Shown in pieces: positions 3,934 through 37,139 of a DNA stretch of 64,000 nucleotides. Where the stretch lies: IMG/VR virus record IMGVR_UViG_3300042691_049879, positions 4,801 to 68,800 of that record; one strand, 5' to 3'. The translations under genes were made by a program, and so were the position numbers. Source of the DNA: a virus. Each line of letters opens with the position of its first letter. Within the stretch, counting starts at the first letter, position 1. Under the pieces are notes generated by a model. That model was not told where the DNA came from. It worked only from the letters and a program-made list of their open reading frames with translations, and made no database searches.

Positions 3934-5157
3934 TTATATTAAAGATAAAAATCTTTCATAATTTGCCTTATCTATTTCAAAGCCAAGCTCTTTTCCTTGA
4001 ATTGGAATTTGCCCAGATTCAATTTTATTTTGTACTTCTGGTAAATCTTTTATTTTTAATTTATCAAAATTATATAATGATTTCGCTATATTTTTATCGA
4101 TTTTATTTATTTCAGACCAAATAATAAAATCTTTTTCATCAACAGAGTCTTTAATTGACTCTTTTGCTGTTAAAAGTTTTGAAAAAGAATTTATGTCAAT
4201 TAAATATGATTCTGATTTTTTAAAATCTGTAAATAACTTTAAAAAATCTAATAAAAATTTAATAGCTCTTTTTTCTTCATTATTATATTTCATTTCAGTC
4301 AATGTTGATACTACCGATTCAACATTATTGTTTTTAAGAATAAAAGAAACTACAAGAATAGGATTTTTACTACTTATAAAATTAGTGTTTATATTTAATT
4401 TTGGAAACATTCTTTTCATTATCCCAAAATTGTATAAGTCATTTAAAAAAACTTTTGGTTCTTTTGATTTTTTTAATCCAGCATAAAACTCATCTCTAAT
4501 TCTTTCACTTGAAACGCCTGGCATTTCACTGTATTTTAAAATCGCTTTTTTTGTTTTATCATCCAAGTCTCCACCAGTAATATTTTTAAATCTAATAGCT
4601 CTCATTATTCTAAGCCTATCTTCATAAAATCTTTCTTCTGGTTCGCCTACAGTTTTTATTGTGCCAGTTAATAAATCATCAACCCCACCATGAAAATCTA
4701 TGATTTTATTTTCATCAACATCATAATATAAAGCATTTATAGTTAAATCTCTTCTATTGGCATCTTGTTCTATGGTTGAATGCTTAACTTCAGTCGGCCT
4801 TCTACCACTTCCATCATAACTTTCAGACCTAAAAGTTGCTATTTCAACTTCTTCACCATTTATAATAGCAGATACAACGCCAAATGCTTCTCCTTTAGGG
4901 AAATTGTCTATATTGTTTTTATTTAATATGTCAACAACTTCTTCTGGTGTTGCTTCAGTTGCTACATCATAATCTTTTGGCGTCTTTTTTTGTAAAGAAT
5001 CTCTTACTGCGCCTCCAACAACATAAATTTTATAGCCAGAGTCTTTAAAAGCATTATTCAAAACTTCAATTTCATATGGCAGGTCCATCTTAAAAGAAAT
5101 CTCTTTAGTTTCTTTTAAGATTCCAGATAAAAACATATTTCTTCTAACGTTATTCAT
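3934..5157 (-). CDS. cca: CCA-adding tRNA nucleotidyltransferase (PolyA_pol family)
   Basis: VVGGAVRD, KDYDVAT, EIATFRSE, DANRRDLTINALYYD, FYEDRLRIMRAIRF, VSSERIRDE. Confidence 0.9.
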   Translation of the reverse strand: MNNVRRNMFLSGILKETKEISFKMDLPYEIEVLNNAFKDSGYKIYVVGGAVRDSLQKKTPKDYDVATEATPEEVVDILNKNNIDNFPKGEAFGVVSAIINGEEVEIATFRSESYDGSGRRPTEVKHSTIEQDANRRDLTINALYYDVDENKIIDFHGGVDDLLTGTIKTVGEPEERFYEDRLRIMRAIRFKNITGGDLDDKTKKAILKYSEMPGVSSERIRDEFYAGLKKSKEPKVFLNDLYNFGIMKRMFPKLNINTNFISSKNPILVVSFILKNNNVESVVSTLTEMKYNNEEKRAIKFLLDFLKLFTDFKKSESYLIDINSFSKLLTAKESIKDSVDEKDFIIWSEINKIDKNIAKSLYNFDKLKIKDLPEVQNKIESGQIPIQGKELGFEIDKANYERFLSLI

Positions 5158-9688: not shown

Positions 9689-10174
9689 TTACCAAGTTAT
9701 AACGCCAAGACCCAAATCTCCGTAATATCTTTTACTTTTTGCTATAGTTTGTCTAATTGCTTTATCTGAATCGAATTTAGATTTACCAATCATTGAATTA
9801 TTTGAATTATTTGGCATGTCATCATCTGACATTATATCTCCATATTCATCCACTATTTCTTCTAACGTATCAGTTTCTAATTCTTCTTCTGGTTTTGATT
9901 TAGAGATAAATTCTTTAACAAAATCAACCATCCCAGAGTTTTCTGAGTTATTATTCATCCAATTGCTTACACAATCATTCTTAACTGACAATTTCATATC
10001 TCTACCATCTGTTGTAGTAAAGTCGATTACAAACTTATTTTTGCCAATATTCATATTTGCATTTGCAACAGAACCTATAATGTCTGGCGCTAGATAAAAG
10101 AAATCTTCATTTCTTTCTTGAAAACTTTCAAATAATAAATTTCTTAAAAGCTGTTTACCTTTATACATATTCAA
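9689..10174 (-). CDS. Hypothetical protein, probably late
   Basis: ORF; TATTTAT at 10188-10194. Confidence 0.65.
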   Translation of the reverse strand: MNMYKGKQLLRNLLFESFQERNEDFFYLAPDIIGSVANANMNIGKNKFVIDFTTTDGRDMKLSVKNDCVSNWMNNNSENSGMVDFVKEFISKSKPEEELETDTLEEIVDEYGDIMSDDDMPNNSNNSMIGKSKFDSDKAIRQTIAKSKRYYGDLGLGVITW

Positions 10175-31242: not shown

Positions 31243-31284
31243 AAAAAGCCCACTAAAAAAGCCCACTAAAAAAGTGGGCTTTTT
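31243..31284. terminator. Bidirectional terminator with duplicated arm
   Basis: gcccactaaaaaa twice, then gtgggcttttt. Confidence 0.75.
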
Positions 31285-31286
31285 AT

Positions 31287-31793
31287 TTAATTAACAATTC
31301 CAACATAAACTTTCCAGGAATCATGAAAAGAGTTTAATCTTTCTATGTATGACAAATAATTAGGCCTAAAAGGTTTATGATGCATTGTCAAATTGTATTC
31401 CTTTAAAAAATCATCTACTAATAAATCTCCTTTTTTAACATTACATTTTCCGCAACAAGTAACAAGATTATTCCAAGTATTTTGTCCTCCTTTTGACCTT
31501 GGATGAACATGGTCTATAGTTAATTTTTCGCTAGAACGACAATATATGCATTTAAAATCATCTCTTCTAAAAACATTTTCTCTTGTTAAGTTAACCTTTC
31601 TAAATGGAACTGAAACATATCTTAATAAACGTATAACTGTAGGTCTTTGGTATTTTGTTGTTGAAGTAACTATTGGTCTATCAGGTATATGTTCTACTAC
31701 TTCAGCCTTACCTTTAAAGACCAATTTAAAACCTCTTGACAATGTTGTTACATTTATAGGTTCATAAGCACTATTTAAAACTAATACCTTCAT
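31287..31793 (-). CDS. HNH endonuclease (McrA-like)
   Basis: VLVLN.AYEPI, RD...CIYC, TIDHVHPRSKGG..TW.NLVTCCGKCN..K. Confidence 0.9.
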   Translation of the reverse strand: MKVLVLNSAYEPINVTTLSRGFKLVFKGKAEVVEHIPDRPIVTSTTKYQRPTVIRLLRYVSVPFRKVNLTRENVFRRDDFKCIYCRSSEKLTIDHVHPRSKGGQNTWNNLVTCCGKCNVKKGDLLVDDFLKEYNLTMHHKPFRPNYLSYIERLNSFHDSWKVYVGIVN

Positions 31794-31872
31794 ATAATTT
31801 ATTTTATAATTATAAATAATTATTTTTTTTTATTTAAAAACTATTCAATTTATTATTTTTTTTATTTTAAAG

Positions 31873-31956
31873 TAGCGGAGGTCGGACTCGAACCGACGGG
31901 GTCTTTCGACACAAGGTTATGAGCCTTGCCAGCTACCAACTACTTACTACTCCGCA
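31873..31956 (-). tRNA. tRNA-Met(CAU), initiator-like, with long variable arm
   Basis: 1:72 mismatch, CAAGG-CUCAUAA-CCUUG, extra GUC-GAAA-GAC arm. Confidence 0.75.
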
Positions 31957-31964
31957 ATATATTG

Positions 31965-32038
31965 TAGCGAGAGACAGAATCGAACTGTCGACCTTGGGGT
32001 TATGACTCCCACGCTCTAGCCAACTGAGCTATCTCGCC
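31965..32038 (-). tRNA. tRNA-Met(CAU), elongator
   Basis: GGCGAGA acceptor; loop GUCAUAA. Confidence 0.82.
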
Positions 32039-32215
32039 ATAAATTAAAGCCTACATTAAGTAAGCTTTAATTTTTTTAAGAAGGATTTAATTTTTTTTAT
32101 TCTTCTTATTTTTCTGATTTTATTTGCTCGTTCAAAAATTAAACGAACTTTTTTATCAATCTTTCCTTCTCTCTCTGACACACTTAACACTTCTCTCATA
32201 TCTATTTGTTTTTAT

Positions 32216-32548
32216 TTATTCTTTTTTATCTGGAAGCTTTGAATCCAATTCATTTATTAACCAATATGGACTTCCACCTTCTACTTAATGTATTTCGTTG
32301 AAACCATTTTCTTTAGTAATTAAAGACTCTTCTTCAGTTATTGAGCCAGAATGTTTTCCTGCACCTTTTTTATTTTCAATATTACCAGTACTAGGATTAT
32401 AACTGCCCCAATCAGCCATTCTATCATTTCCTATTGTTTCAATAAAATATTTTTTACCAGTTCTATAAGAAACAACAATCTCTCTTCCAGTTTCATCTCT
32501 ATTAATCAAAAAGTTTTTTAATACTTCTTCTTTTATATTTCTTTTCAT
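32216..32548 (-). pseudogene. Phage hypothetical protein interrupted by an in-frame TAA
   Basis: Frame continues after ...NEIH* as VEGGSPYWLINELDSKLPDKKE*. Confidence 0.45.
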
Positions 32549-32559
32549 TTTAAGTCATT

Positions 32560-32751
32560 TTAAAGTTCAAACGAGTGTGATTTGCCACACTCGTTACACT
32601 TTACGTCAATGTAAGTGTAAGACCAGTCTTCGTAATAATTACCTTGACTGATATATGGATTTTGAATTTCTTGTCTTATTTTTTTATTTTCTGTTGGACA
32701 AGTAAACTCAATTTCAATCACATGTCTAATTGTCGTACATCCTTTTAACAT
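32560..32751 (-). CDS. Small Zn-ribbon protein
   Basis: CPTE...CNECG; ATG at 32751 (the track start overlaps tRNA-Gly). Confidence 0.6.
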   Translation of the reverse strand: MLKGCTTIRHVIEIEFTCPTENKKIRQEIQNPYISQGNYYEDWSYTYIDVKCNECGKSHSFEL

Positions 32752-32772
32752 GACTTTTAATTTTAGTTTTTG

Positions 32773-32846
32773 AGCAAGAGATGGGATTCCAACCCACGAC
32801 CCCAACCTTGGCAAGGTTGTGCTCTAAGCAGCTGAGCTACTCTTGC
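32773..32846 (-). tRNA. tRNA-Gly(GCC)
   Basis: CAACC-UUGCCAA-GGUUG. Confidence 0.9.
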
Positions 32847-32855
32847 TTATTGTTG

Positions 32856-32929
32856 CTCTCCCGCCTGGGCTCGAACCAGGGACCCTCTGATTAACAGTCA
32901 GATGCTCTAACCAACTGAGCTACAGGAGA
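32856..32929 (-). tRNA. tRNA-Asn(GUU)
   Basis: UCUGA-CUGUUAA-UCAGA, G73. Confidence 0.93.
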
Positions 32930-32947
32930 TTGTATTTACATTATTTG

Positions 32948-33023
32948 CGGTCCCACACGGATTCGAACCGAGCTGAAATCCTCCGTGACAGGGAGGTGGC
33001 CACACCAAGCAGCCCCTGAGACC
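32948..33023 (-). tRNA. tRNA-Asp(GUC)
   Basis: CCUCC-CUGUCAC-GGAGG, G73. Confidence 0.88.
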
Positions 33024-33042
33024 TTTTTTTTTACAAAAAGTG

Positions 33043-33116
33043 GGTGAATAGTCGGAATCGAACCGACGACACAAGGAACCACAATCCTATGCTCTGCCTA
33101 CTGAGCTATATCCACC
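33043..33116 (-). tRNA. tRNA-His(GUG) with G-1
   Basis: Loop UUGUGGU; G-1:C73. Confidence 0.9.
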
Positions 33117-33164
33117 ATATTAAAACTTACTTTTTTCACATTAATCGGAATTTAGATTGTGCTT

Positions 33165-33239
33165 TTTACCTTGTTGGAGTCGAACCAACATTCTCTCGGC
33201 TAACCGCCGAGCGCCCTACCAATTTACTACCAAAGGTAA
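33165..33239 (-). tRNA. Atypical tRNA-like RNA, GUU anticodon with G33
   Basis: UUACCUU/AAGGUAA acceptor, CUCGG-CGGUUAG-CCGAG, perfect T-arm, unpaired D-arm. Confidence 0.55.
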
Positions 33240-33281
33240 GTAAGTTTTTTATTTTAAATTCAAAGAACGTTTTCTTTTTTG

Positions 33282-33355
33282 TTCCCCCGACAAGATTCGA
33301 ACTTGTGGCCCTTCCATTAAAAGTGGAATGCTCTAACCTGCTGAGCTACGAGGGA
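33282..33355 (-). tRNA. tRNA-Lys(UUU)
   Basis: UUCCA-CUUUUAA-UGGAA. Confidence 0.88.
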
Positions 33356-33363
33356 ATAATTTG

Positions 33364-33436
33364 TGCGCCCAGCAAGATTCGAACTTGCGACCCCCGCATT
33401 AAAAGTGCGGTGCTCTACCAACTAAGCTATGAGCGC
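33364..33436 (-). tRNA. tRNA-Lys(UUU), second divergent copy
   Basis: CCGCA-CUUUUAA-UGCGG. Confidence 0.9.
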
Positions 33437-33493
33437 ATTTTGATTTGGGATTCGCTCACACTTATTAGTAGAGTGAATCCCTAAAGTTTATAT

Positions 33494-33748
33494 TTAAATT
33501 TCTTTTTCATTTTCTTCAATTTCTTTTAATACTTCTTTTAAAGCTTCTCTTTTAATTTTATTTCTTTCTTTTCTGTATTTGTAATATGAACACATTTCAC
33601 AACTACATGGTGTCGATGTAGATTTCATCCAATAATAAAATTCTCCATCATTAAAAAATTGTTTAACTCTCTTTTTAACTTTTTTAGCTAAATCTTTCCT
33701 TCTTTTTGCTCTTTTGTAATTTTTCATTTTTACCTCAGTTTTTGCCAA
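33494..33748 (-). CDS. Small basic protein (PCSCEMC motif)
   Basis: TSTPCSCEMCS; true start uncertain. Confidence 0.6.
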   Translation of the reverse strand: MAKTEVKMKNYKRAKRRKDLAKKVKKRVKQFFNDGEFYYWMKSTSTPCSCEMCSYYKYRKERNKIKREALKEVLKEIEENEKEI

Positions 33749-33810
33749 TTACTCTTGAGCCAAGTAACTAGCTTGTTATATGAGGTATCTAATTCTACAA
33801 TTTTTCATTT

Positions 33811-34023
33811 TTATATTTTTAAAGTCACTAACACATAAGCATTTACATACTTACCGTCATTTATAAATTTTAGTTCATTATAAACATATCCTTTTTTAAC
33901 AGCCATTTTTTCAAGTTCATCATAATAATCATCGAAGAACTCTTCAAAATCTTGTTTTTTTATTTTCTTTAGAAATATCAAACGTTCTTCGTCTGGTATT
34001 TCATTTATTTTTACTTTAGGCAT
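33811..34023 (-). CDS. Hypothetical protein
   Basis: ORF within tRNA operon 2. Confidence 0.55.
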   Translation of the reverse strand: MPKVKINEIPDEERLIFLKKIKKQDFEEFFDDYYDELEKMAVKKGYVYNELKFINDGKYVNAYVLVTLKI

Positions 34024-34048
34024 AATATTACCTTTTAGTTTTTAAGTG

Positions 34049-34137
34049 CGGAGAAGAGAGGATTCGAACCTCCGATACCAGTTTCCCAGTATGCCTTCTT
34101 AGCAGGAAGGTGCTTTTAGCCACTCAGCCACTTCTCC
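34049..34137 (-). tRNA. tRNA-Ser(GCU)
   Basis: Loop CUGCUAA, long variable arm. Confidence 0.92.
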
Positions 34138-34213
34138 AAAACGCTACCCCGTAAGTAGCGAGGGCAATGTACGGCCTTGCCAAGCCAGAGTATTTACCCT
34201 TTGGGTAAACCAG

Positions 34214-34302
34214 AGGAGAGAGAGGGATTCGAACCCCCGTTACCTTTTACGGTAAGTCTGTTTTCAAGACAGGTGCAATAAGCCAGACTCTGCCATCTCT
34301 CC
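34214..34302 (-). tRNA. tRNA-Ser(UGA)
   Basis: Loop CUUGAAA, long variable arm. Confidence 0.9.
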
Positions 34303-34317
34303 ATTATTCAAAGAACT

Positions 34318-34824
34318 TTAAATTTCAACTTTCCACATAGGGACAAATCCTGCATATCTATCATTTACAACATCTTCCCAGTGGTCTAGCCAACCATCCA
34401 TTCCAAATTGTTGTTGACCTGGAGCTAAGAACATATCTTTTTCTTTAACCCATTTAGCTTGTCCACTAAATCTTGCAACTCTCTTTGCCTCTTCATTGCA
34501 ATCATACCAAGCTCCATCTTCAAGTTGTTCTTTTGGAATAGCTATTTTTAATAAATCTAAATCTCTTTTTCTATTATGTTCAACTATTTGAACAGCTTTT
34601 TCCCAAAGTTCAGCTCCAGTAATATTTTTCCTAATTGTTTCAATTTTTTTTAAAACCTCGTTTGGTTTTTCTCCTTTATCTATTAATTCTTTTATTTTGT
34701 TGTTCCAAGTTTCTTCATTATCCATTTCTACAAACTTTTCAACTTTCTTGTTGGCATAATATTCACCATAATTTGCGTTTATAAGTCTATCGTACCATTC
34801 TTTATATTTTCCTTTAAATTCCAT
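34318..34824 (-). CDS. Hypothetical protein, first gene after attenuator 2
   Basis: 168 aa ORF starting 16 nt after the terminator U-tract. Confidence 0.65.
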   Translation of the reverse strand: MEFKGKYKEWYDRLINANYGEYYANKKVEKFVEMDNEETWNNKIKELIDKGEKPNEVLKKIETIRKNITGAELWEKAVQIVEHNRKRDLDLLKIAIPKEQLEDGAWYDCNEEAKRVARFSGQAKWVKEKDMFLAPGQQQFGMDGWLDHWEDVVNDRYAGFVPMWKVEI

Positions 34825-34839
34825 AACTCAATTTTTTTC

Positions 34840-34925
34840 AAAAAAAAACCCGAACTTTTTCGGTTCGGGTGTCTTATTTCTTTTCAGTTATATTATTAAC
34901 TTTTAAAAGTTGCTAAAGCACACCC
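34840..34925 (-). promoter_or_regulatory. Attenuator 2 before tRNA operon 2
   Basis: Terminator CCCGAAC/GUUCGGG-U9 (34840-34869); GGGUGU(G)CUU can pair with AAGACACCC. Confidence 0.75.
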
Positions 34926-35025
34926 TTATAAACCCTGATTTGTTATCATCATGATTCTTCTTTACATTCCCACTCATTTTCGAAGTGGAAACCAAAGTTG
35001 CGATATGTGTACTTGTAAGTTGCAA
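34903..35025 (-). CDS. Leader peptide 2 (MQLTSTHIATLVSTSKMSGNVKKNHDDNKSGFIRVCFSNF; TTG start, or ATG at 34977)
   Basis: ORF between the TACATTTG promoter (35080-35087) and the terminator; S/K/M/G/N/H/D-rich core. Confidence 0.72.
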   Translation of the reverse strand: MQLTSTHIATLVSTSKMSGNVKKNHDDNKSGFIRVCFSNF

Positions 35026-35257
35026 AATTTTATTTTTTATAATTGTTAATAAATATATCTGTTTTTTTAAAACCCGATACAAATGTAAAACTTTTTTTTT
35101 AATTTACAATAATTATAACGACTTTTTTTTAAAAAAATTACAAAAAAAATTAAAAAAAAACTATAAGTTATTGATTTACAGTATTTTATAATAATTATTT
35201 TTTTTGTATAAATTCATAATTTAAAAGCATTTAAAAAAAAAGTTAATATTTATTATT

Positions 35258-35758
35258 ATGGAAAAAGAAAATTTAAGACATTTAATAAGACAAATTATAA
35301 AGGAGTCTTTCAATAATGTAGAAGAAGGTTCTGGAAGTCATTCTGACGCTAAAGAGATGAGAAAAACTCTTAAATGGATTAGTAAAAATCTTGAAGGAAT
35401 AAAAATAGAAGAAGTTGGAGACGGCCATAGAATTTGTCCACCAATAGACAAATCAGATGAATGTTATACTGTGCACAGAGGGGGAAAAGGAATATATGAT
35501 TTATATAGATTTTTAGCAAAAGCATATAATGTAAATAAGCATGATATAGAATACGCAGTTAGCTCAAATAGACCATTAAATTTAACGTCTGTTAATCCTG
35601 AAGAATTAGCAATTATGAAAAAAGTTAATTTGTCTGGGAAGGATTGGTATATAGATGAAAAGGAACAAAGATTAATAATGGTGAAAAATTTAAATAAAAT
35701 TAAAAATTTTGATGATTTAGATTTTGATGAATACGAAAAAGTAATTGAAGCATTATAA
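35258..35758 (+). CDS. Hypothetical protein with LRHLIRQIIKES tag
   Basis: TATTTAT at 35247. Confidence 0.65.
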   Translation: MEKENLRHLIRQIIKESFNNVEEGSGSHSDAKEMRKTLKWISKNLEGIKIEEVGDGHRICPPIDKSDECYTVHRGGKGIYDLYRFLAKAYNVNKHDIEYAVSSNRPLNLTSVNPEELAIMKKVNLSGKDWYIDEKEQRLIMVKNLNKIKNFDDLDFDEYEKVIEAL

Positions 35759-35792
35759 AAAATGCCCGAATTACTTCGGGCATTTTCTTTTT
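35757..35792. terminator. Bidirectional terminator
   Basis: aaaatgcccgaa-ttac-ttcgggcatttt. Confidence 0.8.
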
Positions 35793-35793
35793 A

Positions 35794-35882
35794 GAGATTA
35801 TTCGAACTTCTCAAAAACCTTACCTAAAATAACATTTAATACTGTGAGGATTATTCGAACTTCCTCAAAACCTTACCTAGAA
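35794..35882 (-). repeat. Two ~36-nt direct repeats, each with a T-loop-like hairpin
   Basis: gagattattcgaacttctcaaaaaccttacctaaaa / gaggattattcgaacttcctcaaaaccttacctagaa. Confidence 0.75.
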
Positions 35883-35891
35883 ACTGATGTG

Positions 35892-35965
35892 TGGTCCCAG
35901 CAGGGCTTGAACCTGCGACCCCCTGATTATGAGTCAGGTGCTCTGACCAGCTGAGCTATAGGACC
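35892..35965 (-). tRNA. tRNA(CAU), probably Ile2 (lysidine-modified, reads AUA)
   Basis: GGUCCUA acceptor, CCUGA-CUCAUAA-UCAGG, Ile2-like body. Confidence 0.8.
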
Positions 35966-35970
35966 AAAAA

Positions 35971-36155
35971 TGGCTATCTGTTGATGCAAACAATTTACCT
36001 TGACTAGTATTTGGTAAACCCGTTAAGTCTATCATCTTTTATCTATATTCTACCCTATGTATAGGGGTGACATTAACAGAAACTCCTCACACTAGATATC
36101 CTCACACGGATTTGTGCCCTGGTAGAGCTAGTGATATGTTTGGAGCTTATCGCCA
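35971..36155 (-). ncRNA. Unidentified structured RNA (~185 nt)
   Basis: End pairing UGGCGAU/AUAGCCA; stems CAAACA/UGUUUG, CACUAG/CUAGUG, CCCUAU/AUAGGG, UUUACC/GGUAAA. Confidence 0.55.
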
Positions 36156-36180
36156 ATTTTTCAAAAAACTTTTTTTAAAA

Positions 36181-36309
36181 TGATATATAGACGTGCAAGG
36201 TAATGGTTTGCAGCCCGTATTAACACGTAACTTTTCTCTGATGAGTGTGTATCTGCAAAGCTACACAACTGCCTCCATACGAATCAGAAATAAGCGACTC
36301 TATATATCA
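36181..36309 (-). ncRNA. Unidentified structured RNA (~130 nt) with potential pseudoknot
   Basis: 11-bp closing stem UGAUAUAUAGA/UCUAUAUAUCA; loop UUUGCAG complementary to CUGCAAA. Confidence 0.55.
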
Positions 36310-36315
36310 TTCTTG

Positions 36316-36399
36316 TGGTATAGGGTGGAATCGAACCACCGACAAGTCAGACGTACATTACTGCCCTTGCCCCAGGTTTGCTAGCTATTTTACTATACC
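36316..36399 (-). ncRNA. tRNA-like RNA with expanded anticodon region
   Basis: GGUAUAG/CUAUACC-A acceptor, GGUGG-UUCGAUU-CCACC T-arm, 19-nt loop in the anticodon arm. Confidence 0.6.
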
Positions 36400-36410
36400 A
36401 TATATTAAAA

Positions 36411-36499
36411 TTCAATGGTGGGATTCGAACCCTAAAGAGTCAACATTAAACTCACCCTCCTGTACGTCCTTGCCAAACAAGATAACTTTCCTCATTGAA
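36411..36499 (-). ncRNA. tRNA-like RNA, non-canonical
   Basis: UUCAAUG/CAUUGAA ends, GGG-UUCGAAU-CCC T-loop hairpin. Confidence 0.55.
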
Positions 36500-36562
36500 T
36501 TTTTTAAATTTTAGGGGGAACAATGTTAATTTCCCTAGTACAGGTGCTCCTAAAATTTATTG

Positions 36563-36636
36563 TACACCCACCAGGATTCAAACCTGGGACCTATTCATTA
36601 GAAGTGAATTGCTCTATTCAGCTGAGCTATGGGTGC
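36563..36636 (-). tRNA. tRNA-Arg(UCU)
   Basis: AUUCA-CUUCUAA-UGAAU. Confidence 0.92.
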
Positions 36637-36731
36637 ATTTTAATCTTTCAAAGAACTTTCATTGTTTATTGTAACGACAAATGTAAAACTTTATTACAAT
36701 AAAACAAAAAAAAATTAATTTTTTATTTTTG

Positions 36732-36803
36732 TACTCTAGAAGGGAATTGAACCCTCACCTTCATATTATAAGTATGATGCTCTGACCACTGAGCTACTAG
36801 AGT
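36732..36803 (-). tRNA. tRNA-Ile(UAU)
   Basis: UCAUA-CUUAUAA-UAUGA. Confidence 0.88.
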
Positions 36804-36839
36804 ATTGTTTCTTTCACAAAAATAGTCAATAATTGTGAC

Positions 36840-36913
36840 AAAAAAAAAGGTCTAGACAATTCTGCCCAGACCCTTTAGTGTTTTAATTATTAAAATTTAC
36901 ACAATATCTAGGC
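36840..36913 (-). promoter_or_regulatory. Attenuator 3 before tRNA operon 3
   Basis: Terminator GGUCUGGGC/GUCUAGACC-U9 (36840-36872); GCCUAGAU (36906-36913) can pair with GUCUGGGC. Confidence 0.8.
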
Positions 36914-36971
36914 TTGAACAAGAATTTCTTCTTATCCTTTTAGCTATTGATATTGAGTTAATTTTTTTCAT
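36897..36971 (-). CDS. Leader peptide 3 (MKKINSISIAKRIRRNSCSSLDIV)
   Basis: Codons ATA TCA ATA GCT AAA AGG ATA AGA AGA directly upstream of tRNA-Ile(UAU), Arg(UCU) and Ile2. Confidence 0.8.
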   Translation of the reverse strand: MKKINSISIAKRIRRNSCSSLDIV

Positions 36972-36977
36972 ATTTTA

Positions 36978-37139
36978 TTAATCTTTTACGATAACTGACC
37001 AAACAGTACCAACCAAAGCAACTACACCACCAACTACTTCAGTAACTAGTGTTTCATCCACTAAACCTTTCATCACTAAAAAACCACCAACGAAAGTAAG
37101 TGTGTGACGAATAATTCCTAAAACTTTTTCTTTATTCAT
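36978..37139 (-). CDS. Small 2-TM holin-like protein (MNKEKVLGIIRHTLTFVGG...GTVWSVIVKD)
   Basis: 53 aa, below ORF cutoff; TATTTAT at 37164-37170. Confidence 0.7.
   Translation of the reverse strand: MNKEKVLGIIRHTLTFVGGFLVMKGLVDETLVTEVVGGVVALVGTVWSVIVKD

Follow-up and report, generated by a model that had tools for sequence, protein, structure and literature searches.

A putative ribosome-mediated attenuator ahead of a phage tRNA operon, with leader codons that match the downstream tRNA genes

Known attenuators and the phage locus

Amino-acid operons are controlled by leader-peptide attenuators (trpL, hisL, leuL, pheL, and the multivalent thrL and ilvL), in which a short leader containing regulatory codons is translated. 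In those of the trpL and hisL type, the 1:2, 2:3, and 3:4 pairings exclude one another, a terminator stands before the regulated genes, and the position of the ribosome decides between the pairings. In Escherichia coli, the pheM leader peptide attenuates pheST, which belongs to the translation apparatus, in response to the decoding of its cognate codons. T-box riboswitches sense the state of a tRNA through a terminator/antiterminator switch placed before translation-related genes. To our knowledge, all described leader-peptide attenuators regulate amino-acid biosynthesis or aminoacyl-tRNA synthetase genes. Here, we describe a phage element, attenuator 2, which is predicted to share the above features of these systems and precedes tRNA genes. 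It lies in a 64-kb stretch of DNA (positions 4,801 to 68,800 of the IMG/VR record IMGVR_UViG_3300042691_049879; hereafter, the window) out of a 68.8-kb single-contig genome that carries phage genes for a lysozyme, an SNF2 helicase, and an HNH endonuclease.

On the minus strand, positions 35087-34839 contain a promoter-like box, a short open reading frame (ORF), a GGGUGU/ACACCC antiterminator, and a strong terminator, behind which 10 tRNA genes and several ORFs are located. The tRNA genes of the genome (23/23) are confined to three minus-strand arrays, and a leader with a terminator precedes each of them. Array 2, as defined by tRNA calls at 31872..34302(-), consists of Ser-tga, Ser-gct, two Lys-ttt, His, Asp, Asn, Gly-gcc, and two Met genes. 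The original prediction had named the promoter box, a 40-amino-acid (aa) ORF starting at TTG or at ATG 34977, the switch, and these tRNAs plus several small proteins downstream; every element was found in its place, and the core codon string quoted for the leader was exact.

We put the probability that attenuator 2 is a ribosome-mediated (leader-peptide) transcription attenuator controlling the phage tRNA operon at about three in four. Transcription would begin at the TACATTTG promoter, and the ribosome would translate the short leader; the block in the middle of this peptide, K M S G N V K K N H D D N K S, is encoded by codons of the downstream tRNAs. With cognate aminoacyl-tRNAs plentiful, the ribosome would cover region 2, the terminator would form, and transcription would stop at 34839. 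With any of them scarce, the ribosome would stall in the sensor and region 2 would pair with ACACCC; the 5' arm of the terminator would then be sequestered, and RNA polymerase would continue into the operon, which comprises a 168-aa ORF, ten tRNA genes, and small ORFs. Without translation, region 1 would pair with region 2 and the terminator would form. The phage thus probably makes the array-2 tRNAs only when ribosomes decode the sensor codons slowly, and the tRNA products would relieve the stall, giving negative feedback on tRNA supply.

Every feature of leader-peptide attenuators that can be read from a sequence was found at this locus, and the element would work like those of the thr and ilv type. 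It is set apart from ordinary attenuators by its regulated genes, which are tRNA genes, and by a sensor that appears tuned to the products of its own operon. Unlike trpL and hisL, it would regulate tRNA genes and phage ORFs rather than biosynthetic enzymes; the genes downstream are tRNA genes, uncharacterised ORFs, and an HNH endonuclease gene, in place of biosynthesis or synthetase genes. In addition, the phage sensors sample 6-11 amino acids, those of the downstream tRNAs, and are placed between regions 1 and 2, with region 2 inside the ORF. By comparison, pheST is cellular, controls an aminoacyl-tRNA synthetase, and senses one amino acid, whereas a T-box binds one uncharged tRNA via one specifier codon with no ribosome involved; here, a multi-codon ORF would be the sensor. 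The T-box model gave no match at E<=1 in 34800-37000, and at the Rfam gathering score only tRNAs were matched and no leader family (Thr_leader, His_leader, Trp_leader, and others). The best sub-threshold leader match at E<=1 was Thr_leader (25.7 bits vs 55), which covered the terminator only. No description of leader-peptide control of tRNA genes was found in full-text literature searches, whose coverage ended short of supplements and subscription journals, and a term look-up in PMC2965389 gave 0 occurrences. When 6 kb of the locus were compared with 50,697 phage records by blastn, matches were found in tRNA genes only, with no close cultured relative.

Leader, switch, and predicted folds

The putative promoter of attenuator 2 is a -7 box, TACATTTG, recognised by its motif at 35080..35087(-); TAnnTTTG is presumably the sigma-A consensus of Bacteroidota. 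The exact TTTTACATTTG occurs at two sites in the window, namely attenuator 2 and 36688-36678(-) before tRNA-Arg-tct, and the box is held at the same alignment columns in four relatives as TATATTTG or TATATTCG. As a genome-wide signal the motif was unconvincing: TTTTAYATTTG with one mismatch gave 31 sites against 23 expected, a count reached by 5 of 100 shuffles. An A/U-rich stretch lies between the box and the leader ORF.

The leader is a short ORF with a start codon, and it ends ahead of the regulated genes at a TAA stop codon (34903..34905(-)). From a candidate TTG start at 35023..35025(-) it comprises 40 codons (LQLTSTHIATLVSTSKMSGNVKKNHDDNKSGFIRVCFSNF, followed by the stop), and from an alternative in-frame ATG at 34975..34977(-) it comprises 24 codons (MSGNVKKNHDDNKSGFIRVCFSNF, followed by the stop). 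The TTG is invariant in 5/5 homologues. With this start, region 1 falls at codons 5-7, matching other families of the switch described below, the N-terminus LQLTSTHI resembles the leaders of those families, and the spacing from promoter box to start is 55 nt, compared with 57 nt in attenuator 1. The ATG is favored by the tRNA-matching block, which begins close to it, and by the TTG-to-ATG codons, which fit the array less well (overall match, 16/32). The first ATG of the relatives sits 6 codons further downstream in the same frame. We put the two candidate starts, TTG 35025 and ATG 34977, at roughly even odds; the TACATTTG box together with the putative TTG-started 40-aa frame is supported by its fit to the family architecture.

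Region 1 (AAGUACAC, 35007..35014(-)) is the predicted anti-antiterminator strand and pairs with region 2 in the minimum free energy (MFE) fold. It is followed by a predicted hairpin, P0 (34960..34997(-)), with ATG 34977 at its loop edge, and by the sensor codons AAA ATG AGT GGG AAT GTA AAG AAG AAT CAT GAT GAT AAC AAA TCA (34936..34980(-)). A further hairpin is predicted inside the sensor (GAAUC.AUGA...UCAU.GGGUU, 34930..34957(-)) and could be a pause hairpin. Region 2 (34916..34925(-)) lies inside the leader ORF; its GGGUGU (GGGTGT at 34925-34920(-)) is predicted to pair with ACACCC, and its GUGUGCUU with region 1. Region 3 (ACACCC, 34867..34872(-)) has 4 nt in common with the 5' arm of an intrinsic terminator (34839..34870(-)), which stands between the leader and the regulated genes and consists of the stem ACCCGAAC/GUUCGGGU (also given as ACCCGAAC/GTTCGGGT), a 7-nt loop, and U9. 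The stem at 34870-34848 has 8 pairs, 5 of which are G-C, followed by T9, with a folding energy of -11.8 kcal/mol. A simple terminator scan of the window gave 12 sites against 6.9 expected, and the attenuator-2 hairpin was among them. The switch sequence said to be common to attenuators 1 and 2 was confirmed as the exact ACACCCGAA, which occurs only twice in the window (34872-34864 and 25001-24993), both times ahead of a tRNA array; with one mismatch allowed it occurs 7 times, which is reached by 10 of 100 shuffles and is not above chance.

The MFE fold of the full leader contained the region 1:2 helix and the terminator (-42.9 kcal/mol, z -3.2), and 0 of 200 shuffles were as stable. Region 1 is thus predicted to act as an anti-antiterminator that would give termination without translation. 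When the RNA was cut before the 3' arm of the terminator, GGGUGU paired with ACACCC in the MFE fold, and this antiterminator is mutually exclusive with the terminator. In five attenuator-2 homologues, the 1:2 helix was 92% paired, with one G-C to A-U double change (in contig L205), and the sensor-internal hairpin had 100% of its cells paired, with one-sided changes only. The P0 core stem around the ATG was retained in the relatives with one double change. The covariation evidence is modest because only five sequences were available, and its score was reached by 20 of 500 shuffles. The region 34300-35150 showed zero sequence differences from the contigs of 4 DNA runs, and a look-up of RNA runs containing the stretch listed none. 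The leader-peptide anatomy put forward in the original prediction is supported by the sequence features and by the predicted folds.

Ribosome stalling was modelled with a ribosome protecting 13 nt ahead of the A-site codon, a leading edge known from footprinting work. In the model, a stall with any of codons 2-14 in the A site leaves region 2 free, and as long as the 3' arm has yet to be transcribed, the antiterminator is the MFE structure of the RNA 3' of the ribosome. Region 2 would be masked by stalls at codon 15 and later; the matching block ends at this same point, between N K S and G F I. An extra antiterminator helix was considered as the reason for an unmatched GGG in the sensor and was rejected; it is seen as GGUUU/GAACC in the window and as GAUUU/GAAUC in contig L013 and is absent in L019, L205, and L212.

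Codon match in the genome and in the switch family

The match between leaders and arrays was scored by standard wobble rules against a codon-usage background taken from 54 long ORFs of this genome. Codons read by the tRNAs of the own array numbered 19/34 in leader 1 (P=1.2e-5), 13/23 in leader 2 (P=0.028; genome frequency of the codon set, 0.35), and 6/23 in leader 3 (P=0.016). All six pairings of a leader with another array gave P>=0.26; leader 2 matched array 1 in 5/23 codons and array 3 in 2/23. This cross-array control shares the genome and its composition, and codon bias is therefore excluded as the explanation. In the six-frame scan, the best seven of 41,522 windows for codon set 1 were all within leader 1. 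The leader-2 window at 34977-34983 reached 12/14 and was equalled or beaten at one other locus among 58,425 stop-free windows, and leader 3 was joint first with 3 others among 76,011 windows. The other locus, around 9826-9838(-), scored 13/14 for the leader-2 codon set (Ser/Lys/Asn/His/Asp/Gly/Met) and lies inside a 161-aa ORF, where it is probably a low-complexity run.

The sensor of attenuator 2 was counted from the codon after the ATG to GGGTGT, thus including GGG TTT ATA. Of its codons, 11/16 are read by the array tRNAs, compared with 5/16 and 2/15 in the other two frames; the putative regulatory codons are enriched for those of the array. The signal of attenuator 2 is moderate by itself and strong in combination with the position of the leader directly before the terminator of the array.

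A search with the 168-aa protein encoded directly behind attenuator 2 gave four viral contigs (~51% identity) with the same layout. Their leader reads MSHDDNKS(R/G)FKRVCYDVS from the ATG to the stop, and the tRNAs behind it are Ser-gct, (Lys-ttt), His, Asp, Asn, Val-tac, Phe-gaa, and Met. Around region 1, 28 nt are identical throughout between the window and three of its four relatives. An alignment-based scan for further loci with the 168-aa ORF gave the same 4 contigs among viral contigs and none among genome contigs.

Pattern scans for the switch were also evaluated. The terminator-only pattern had 25 matches (23 loci) in viral contigs; 15 had same-strand tRNA genes downstream, and 14 of these also showed region 2 and a leader ORF. 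The strict pattern with GGGTGTG had 17 matches (15 loci) in viral contigs, with tRNA genes downstream of 15/17 matches, and it was found at 82 metagenome loci. The switch occurs in phage contigs of ~17 kb to 519 kb. In cellular genome contigs, the loose terminator pattern was discarded as mostly chance terminators, with a tRNA within 1.2 kb downstream in 7/121. The pooled instances numbered 116, of which 80 were unique; 35 unique instances combined a leader ORF with one or more tRNA genes downstream, and the other 45 (short contigs, elements without an ORF, and cellular leaders) stood outside the leader/tRNA statistics. The 35 instances form 11 leader families with widely different peptides and arrays. 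For example, a leader containing TIWPIMPTAGNVCIIAGDYSRDN precedes Gly, Met, Val, Trp, Tyr, Pro, Ile, Asp, Ala, Thr, and Arg tRNA genes, one containing NNTHKHFNKSSFSNKS precedes Phe, Asn, His, and three Lys genes, and one containing TTTTATRPVGTTGRPA precedes Pro, Thr, Arg, Ala, Val, and Gly genes.

The sensor contains every downstream tRNA identity in 29/35 instances, many of the arrays being small because the contig ends. For a permutation test, one representative was taken from each family with a well-sampled array, and families H-K, with 1-4 tRNAs detected, were dropped. For the 7 representatives, which were picked with the data in view, the true leader/array pairing was the single best of 5040 permutations in codons read, amino acids, and tRNA-identity coverage. 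The same representatives had 113/172 triplets read in frame, compared with 55/171 and 48/170 in the other frames; this restriction of the match to the ORF frame indicates translation rather than direct RNA-tRNA pairing. In the full RNA, region 2 paired with an upstream region 1 in 19/35 instances. The predicted region 1 lay at leader codons 5.5-8 in most of these; it fell at codons ~5-9 in 14 of the 19 (families A, C, D, E, and K), at codons 7-17 in family F, and at codons 29-30 in L146. The leader frame stops 6-11 codons past region 2 in 31/35 instances and 3-4 codons past it in four (families H and J). Taken together, the own-array match, the six-frame scan, the permutations, and the frame control bear out the earlier proposal that the leader codons track the downstream tRNAs, and they do so also in unrelated members of the switch family.

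The other two arrays of the genome have elements of the same design. Attenuator 1 (25207-24975(-)) consists of a TACATTTG box, the leader MKTINTYKNIRPTATGICPAYRWDGMGVLIHNSID followed by a stop, and the switch GGGTGTGTT with a AACACACCCGAA-terminator. Array 1 behind it carries Pro-tgg, Lys-ctt, Ala, Tyr, Gly-tcc, Trp, Ile-gat, Arg-acg, Thr, and Cys, and leader 1 contains all ten of these amino acids. Attenuator 3 (36971-36836(-)) has the leader MKKINSISIAKRIRRNSCSSLDIV followed by a stop, with three ATA and three AGA/AGG codons, and a 14-pair terminator; Ile-tat, Arg-tct, and Met genes form array 3 behind it. Its switch has another sequence and the same design: in RNA lacking the 3' arm, the final codons of the leader (GCCUAGAU) are paired to the 5' arm of the terminator. 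Attenuator 3 is retained by a relative (L004 4023-4150). The second exact TTTTACATTTG, at 36688-36678(-), is situated between tRNA-Ile-tat and tRNA-Arg-tct, and part of array 3 may therefore own a promoter behind the attenuator. Between tRNA-Arg-tct and tRNA-Met, 36000-36560(-) contains T-arm-like motifs and a sub-threshold tRNA match (36316-36399, 27.7 bits vs 29), which might represent tRNA-like genes that are degraded or unusual.

Switches with the same GGGUGUG/CACACCCG sequence, the same geometry, and a leader ORF over region 2 were also found in cellular contigs. Their leaders, unlike the phage ones, are dominated by one or two amino acids. Such a switch follows the leader MGFCTQAAICEVCCCCCPTTAGKGV and a CCC variant (CCCCC or CCC) directly before sulfite reductase genes, an Arg/Lys-rich leader containing CRKRTKRIRRPGV before semialdehyde dehydrogenase genes, and a T/I/R-rich leader before a GHMP kinase gene. 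The biosynthetic-gene loci are in metagenome contigs L230 (~1596-1683), L216, L188, L171, L190, and L198. These Cys-, Arg/Lys-, and Thr/Ile-rich leaders look like unannotated classical amino-acid attenuators, and this cellular type gave no Rfam match. A conserved element with the switch pattern and neither a leader ORF nor a downstream tRNA, and with no Rfam match, was observed at L149 4307-4390, at L151, and at nine further loci (L156, L157, L162, L170, L174, L177, L203, L214, and L223). In jumbo-type arrays, ARAGORN called a tRNA whose anticodon has four bases (aggg); it lies between the Arg-acg and Arg-cct genes, ~4.1 kb past the terminator in L016 and ~3.0 kb past it in L197.

Alternative readings, co-transcribed genes, and implications

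A stalled ribosome does not distinguish a missing tRNA from an uncharged one, as is known from trp and his attenuation, and attenuator 2 might report general host amino-acid starvation, with the array as just one starvation-induced gene set. The occurrence of the same switch after amino-acid-specific leaders ahead of biosynthetic genes is consistent with this. However, extra tRNA does not relieve amino-acid starvation, each leader fits the array that it precedes and neither of the other two in the genome, and the leaders vary between families as the arrays vary, as product feedback predicts; we regard a starvation sensor as unlikely. The hairpin might be a plain terminator or insulator between transcription units, with the short ORF and its codon content arising by chance in an AT-rich genome where Lys, Asn, Asp, and Ser codons are common (set frequency, 0.35), where one further locus, near 9826-9838(-), reaches an equally high score in the six-frame scan, and where the simple terminator scan gives 12 sites vs 6.9 expected. 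A chance origin is hard to reconcile with an arrangement that is present at all three arrays with array-specific leaders and a frame-specific match, that is seen again in 11 families, each time with another leader and another array, and whose leader is retained in relatives with a neighbouring protein only ~51% identical. We consider it the least probable of the explanations.

The remaining alternative keeps the switch and dispenses with the ribosome: the leader RNA might be bound by tRNAs in a T-box-like manner, by a protein, or by a small molecule, the open frame being incidental. The 28 identical nt around region 1 in the window and three of its four relatives suggest a constraint at the RNA or DNA level, and the leader hairpins are conserved. 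Nevertheless, the matching triplets are in a single frame, and that frame has a start codon and, in 31/35 instances, a stop 6-11 codons past region 2. We know of no T-box precedent for at least 10 consecutive specifier triplets, and no Rfam family was matched at the gathering score. A switch made of RNA alone is thus very unlikely in our estimate, and we infer that the leader is translated and that slow decoding would turn the genes on.

Attenuation by a stalled ribosome has difficulties of its own, several of which come from the folding. When pairs were allowed across the ribosome at equilibrium, the antiterminator appeared only at the Asp11 stall among 7 positions tried, and the 1:2 helix won at most stall positions. 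Region 1 is situated 30 nt upstream of ATG 34977, and the antiterminator of attenuator 2 has 6 pairs only, plus a bulged 5-pair extension. Folding of the complete RNA puts the terminator state ~2.7 kcal/mol below the pre-formed antiterminator; because equilibrium favors termination, read-through must be kinetic. According to the models, the switch would need kinetics, steric exclusion of ribosome-spanning pairs, or queued ribosomes covering region 1. Furthermore, pairing between regions 2 and 3 was predicted for the truncated RNA in 34/35 instances, but the scan pattern fixed GGGTGTG and ACACCC, and this complementarity is therefore not independent evidence. The families and representatives of the permutation test were chosen after the data had been seen. 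Taken singly, attenuator 2 has a modest whole-ORF statistic, and the codons of its set are frequent in a genome so rich in AT. Two GGG codons, GTA, TTT, and ATA of the sensor are not read by array 2. Two of these imperfections had been recognised from the outset, and both hold: the genome has no Val tRNA gene for GTA, and by standard wobble rules Gly-gcc does not read GGG. Relatives lacking a Ser-tga or Lys-ttt gene still hold TCA and AAA. Genes for Val-tac and Phe-gaa are present in relatives, and GTA and TTT may therefore be left over from an earlier array.

The first gene behind attenuator 2 is the 168-aa ORF (34318..34824(-)), which is found in the same place in the relatives. Its protein has 20 homologues, all unnamed, and its residues C109, H148, and D151 are invariant. 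It had been proposed as a candidate for a role in tRNA repair or anti-defence, and this found no direct backing: the protein matched 0 Pfam families and 0 PHROGs. The structure prediction that was called for gave a confident model (pLDDT 89.6) with a helical N-domain and a small alpha/beta C-domain, but in Foldseek searches of PDB and BFVD with this model no match reached E<=0.001. In PDB, the top hit had E=3, and the best viral structural match was an unnamed 75-aa protein (E=0.044). A non-catalytic NlpC/P60 domain scored E=4.5, NlpC/P60-like leads from a protein atlas were weak (TM<=0.42), and no family was assigned. Small ORFs of 70, 84, 87, and 47 aa lie between the tRNA genes within 31872..34302(-). 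The HNH endonuclease gene identified by Pfam/PHROG searches (31287..31793(-)) is the last before the next strong terminator, a two-way terminator-like hairpin on either strand (31256..31284, terminator scan) that is likely the end of the unit.

It is conceivable, although we hold it doubtful, that the attenuators detect damage done by host defences that target tRNAs, in which case the operon would be an inducible counter-defence operon. An anticodon nuclease would cut host tRNAs and cause stalls on K-K-N-H-D-D-N-K, which would turn on replacement tRNAs and helper proteins; the helper would be the conserved Cys/His/Asp 168-aa protein here and Ro60/TROVE-like and RtcB RNA-repair proteins in other members. 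Anticodon nucleases of the PrrC type have Lys tRNA as the substrate, and those of the colicin-E5 type have Tyr, His, Asn, and Asp tRNAs. Array 2 holds Lys-UUU, Asn, Asp, and His. In the switch family, a Ro60/TROVE-like gene (L081 1550-3124(+)) lies directly behind the attenuator and ahead of the tRNAs, and an RtcB ligase gene (L146 6266-7672(+)) lies behind the first attenuator-gated tRNAs. These genes in two contigs are circumstantial support that may keep the tRNA-repair idea for the co-transcribed ORFs alive.

The tRNA genes of phages are usually treated as a constant addition to the host's tRNA pool. If attenuator 2 works as a leader-peptide attenuator, phage tRNA supply would be demand-driven and self-limiting, and the classic logic of attenuation would extend from metabolic genes to the adaptors of the translation machinery itself. 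It would also offer a testable handle on why phage tRNAs are needed, whether for host codon mismatch, host shut-off, or tRNA-cleaving defences. The family is easily recognised by its promoter, codon-matched leader, and GGGUGUG/CACACCC switch, which would make comparative tests and tests with synthetic reporters possible.

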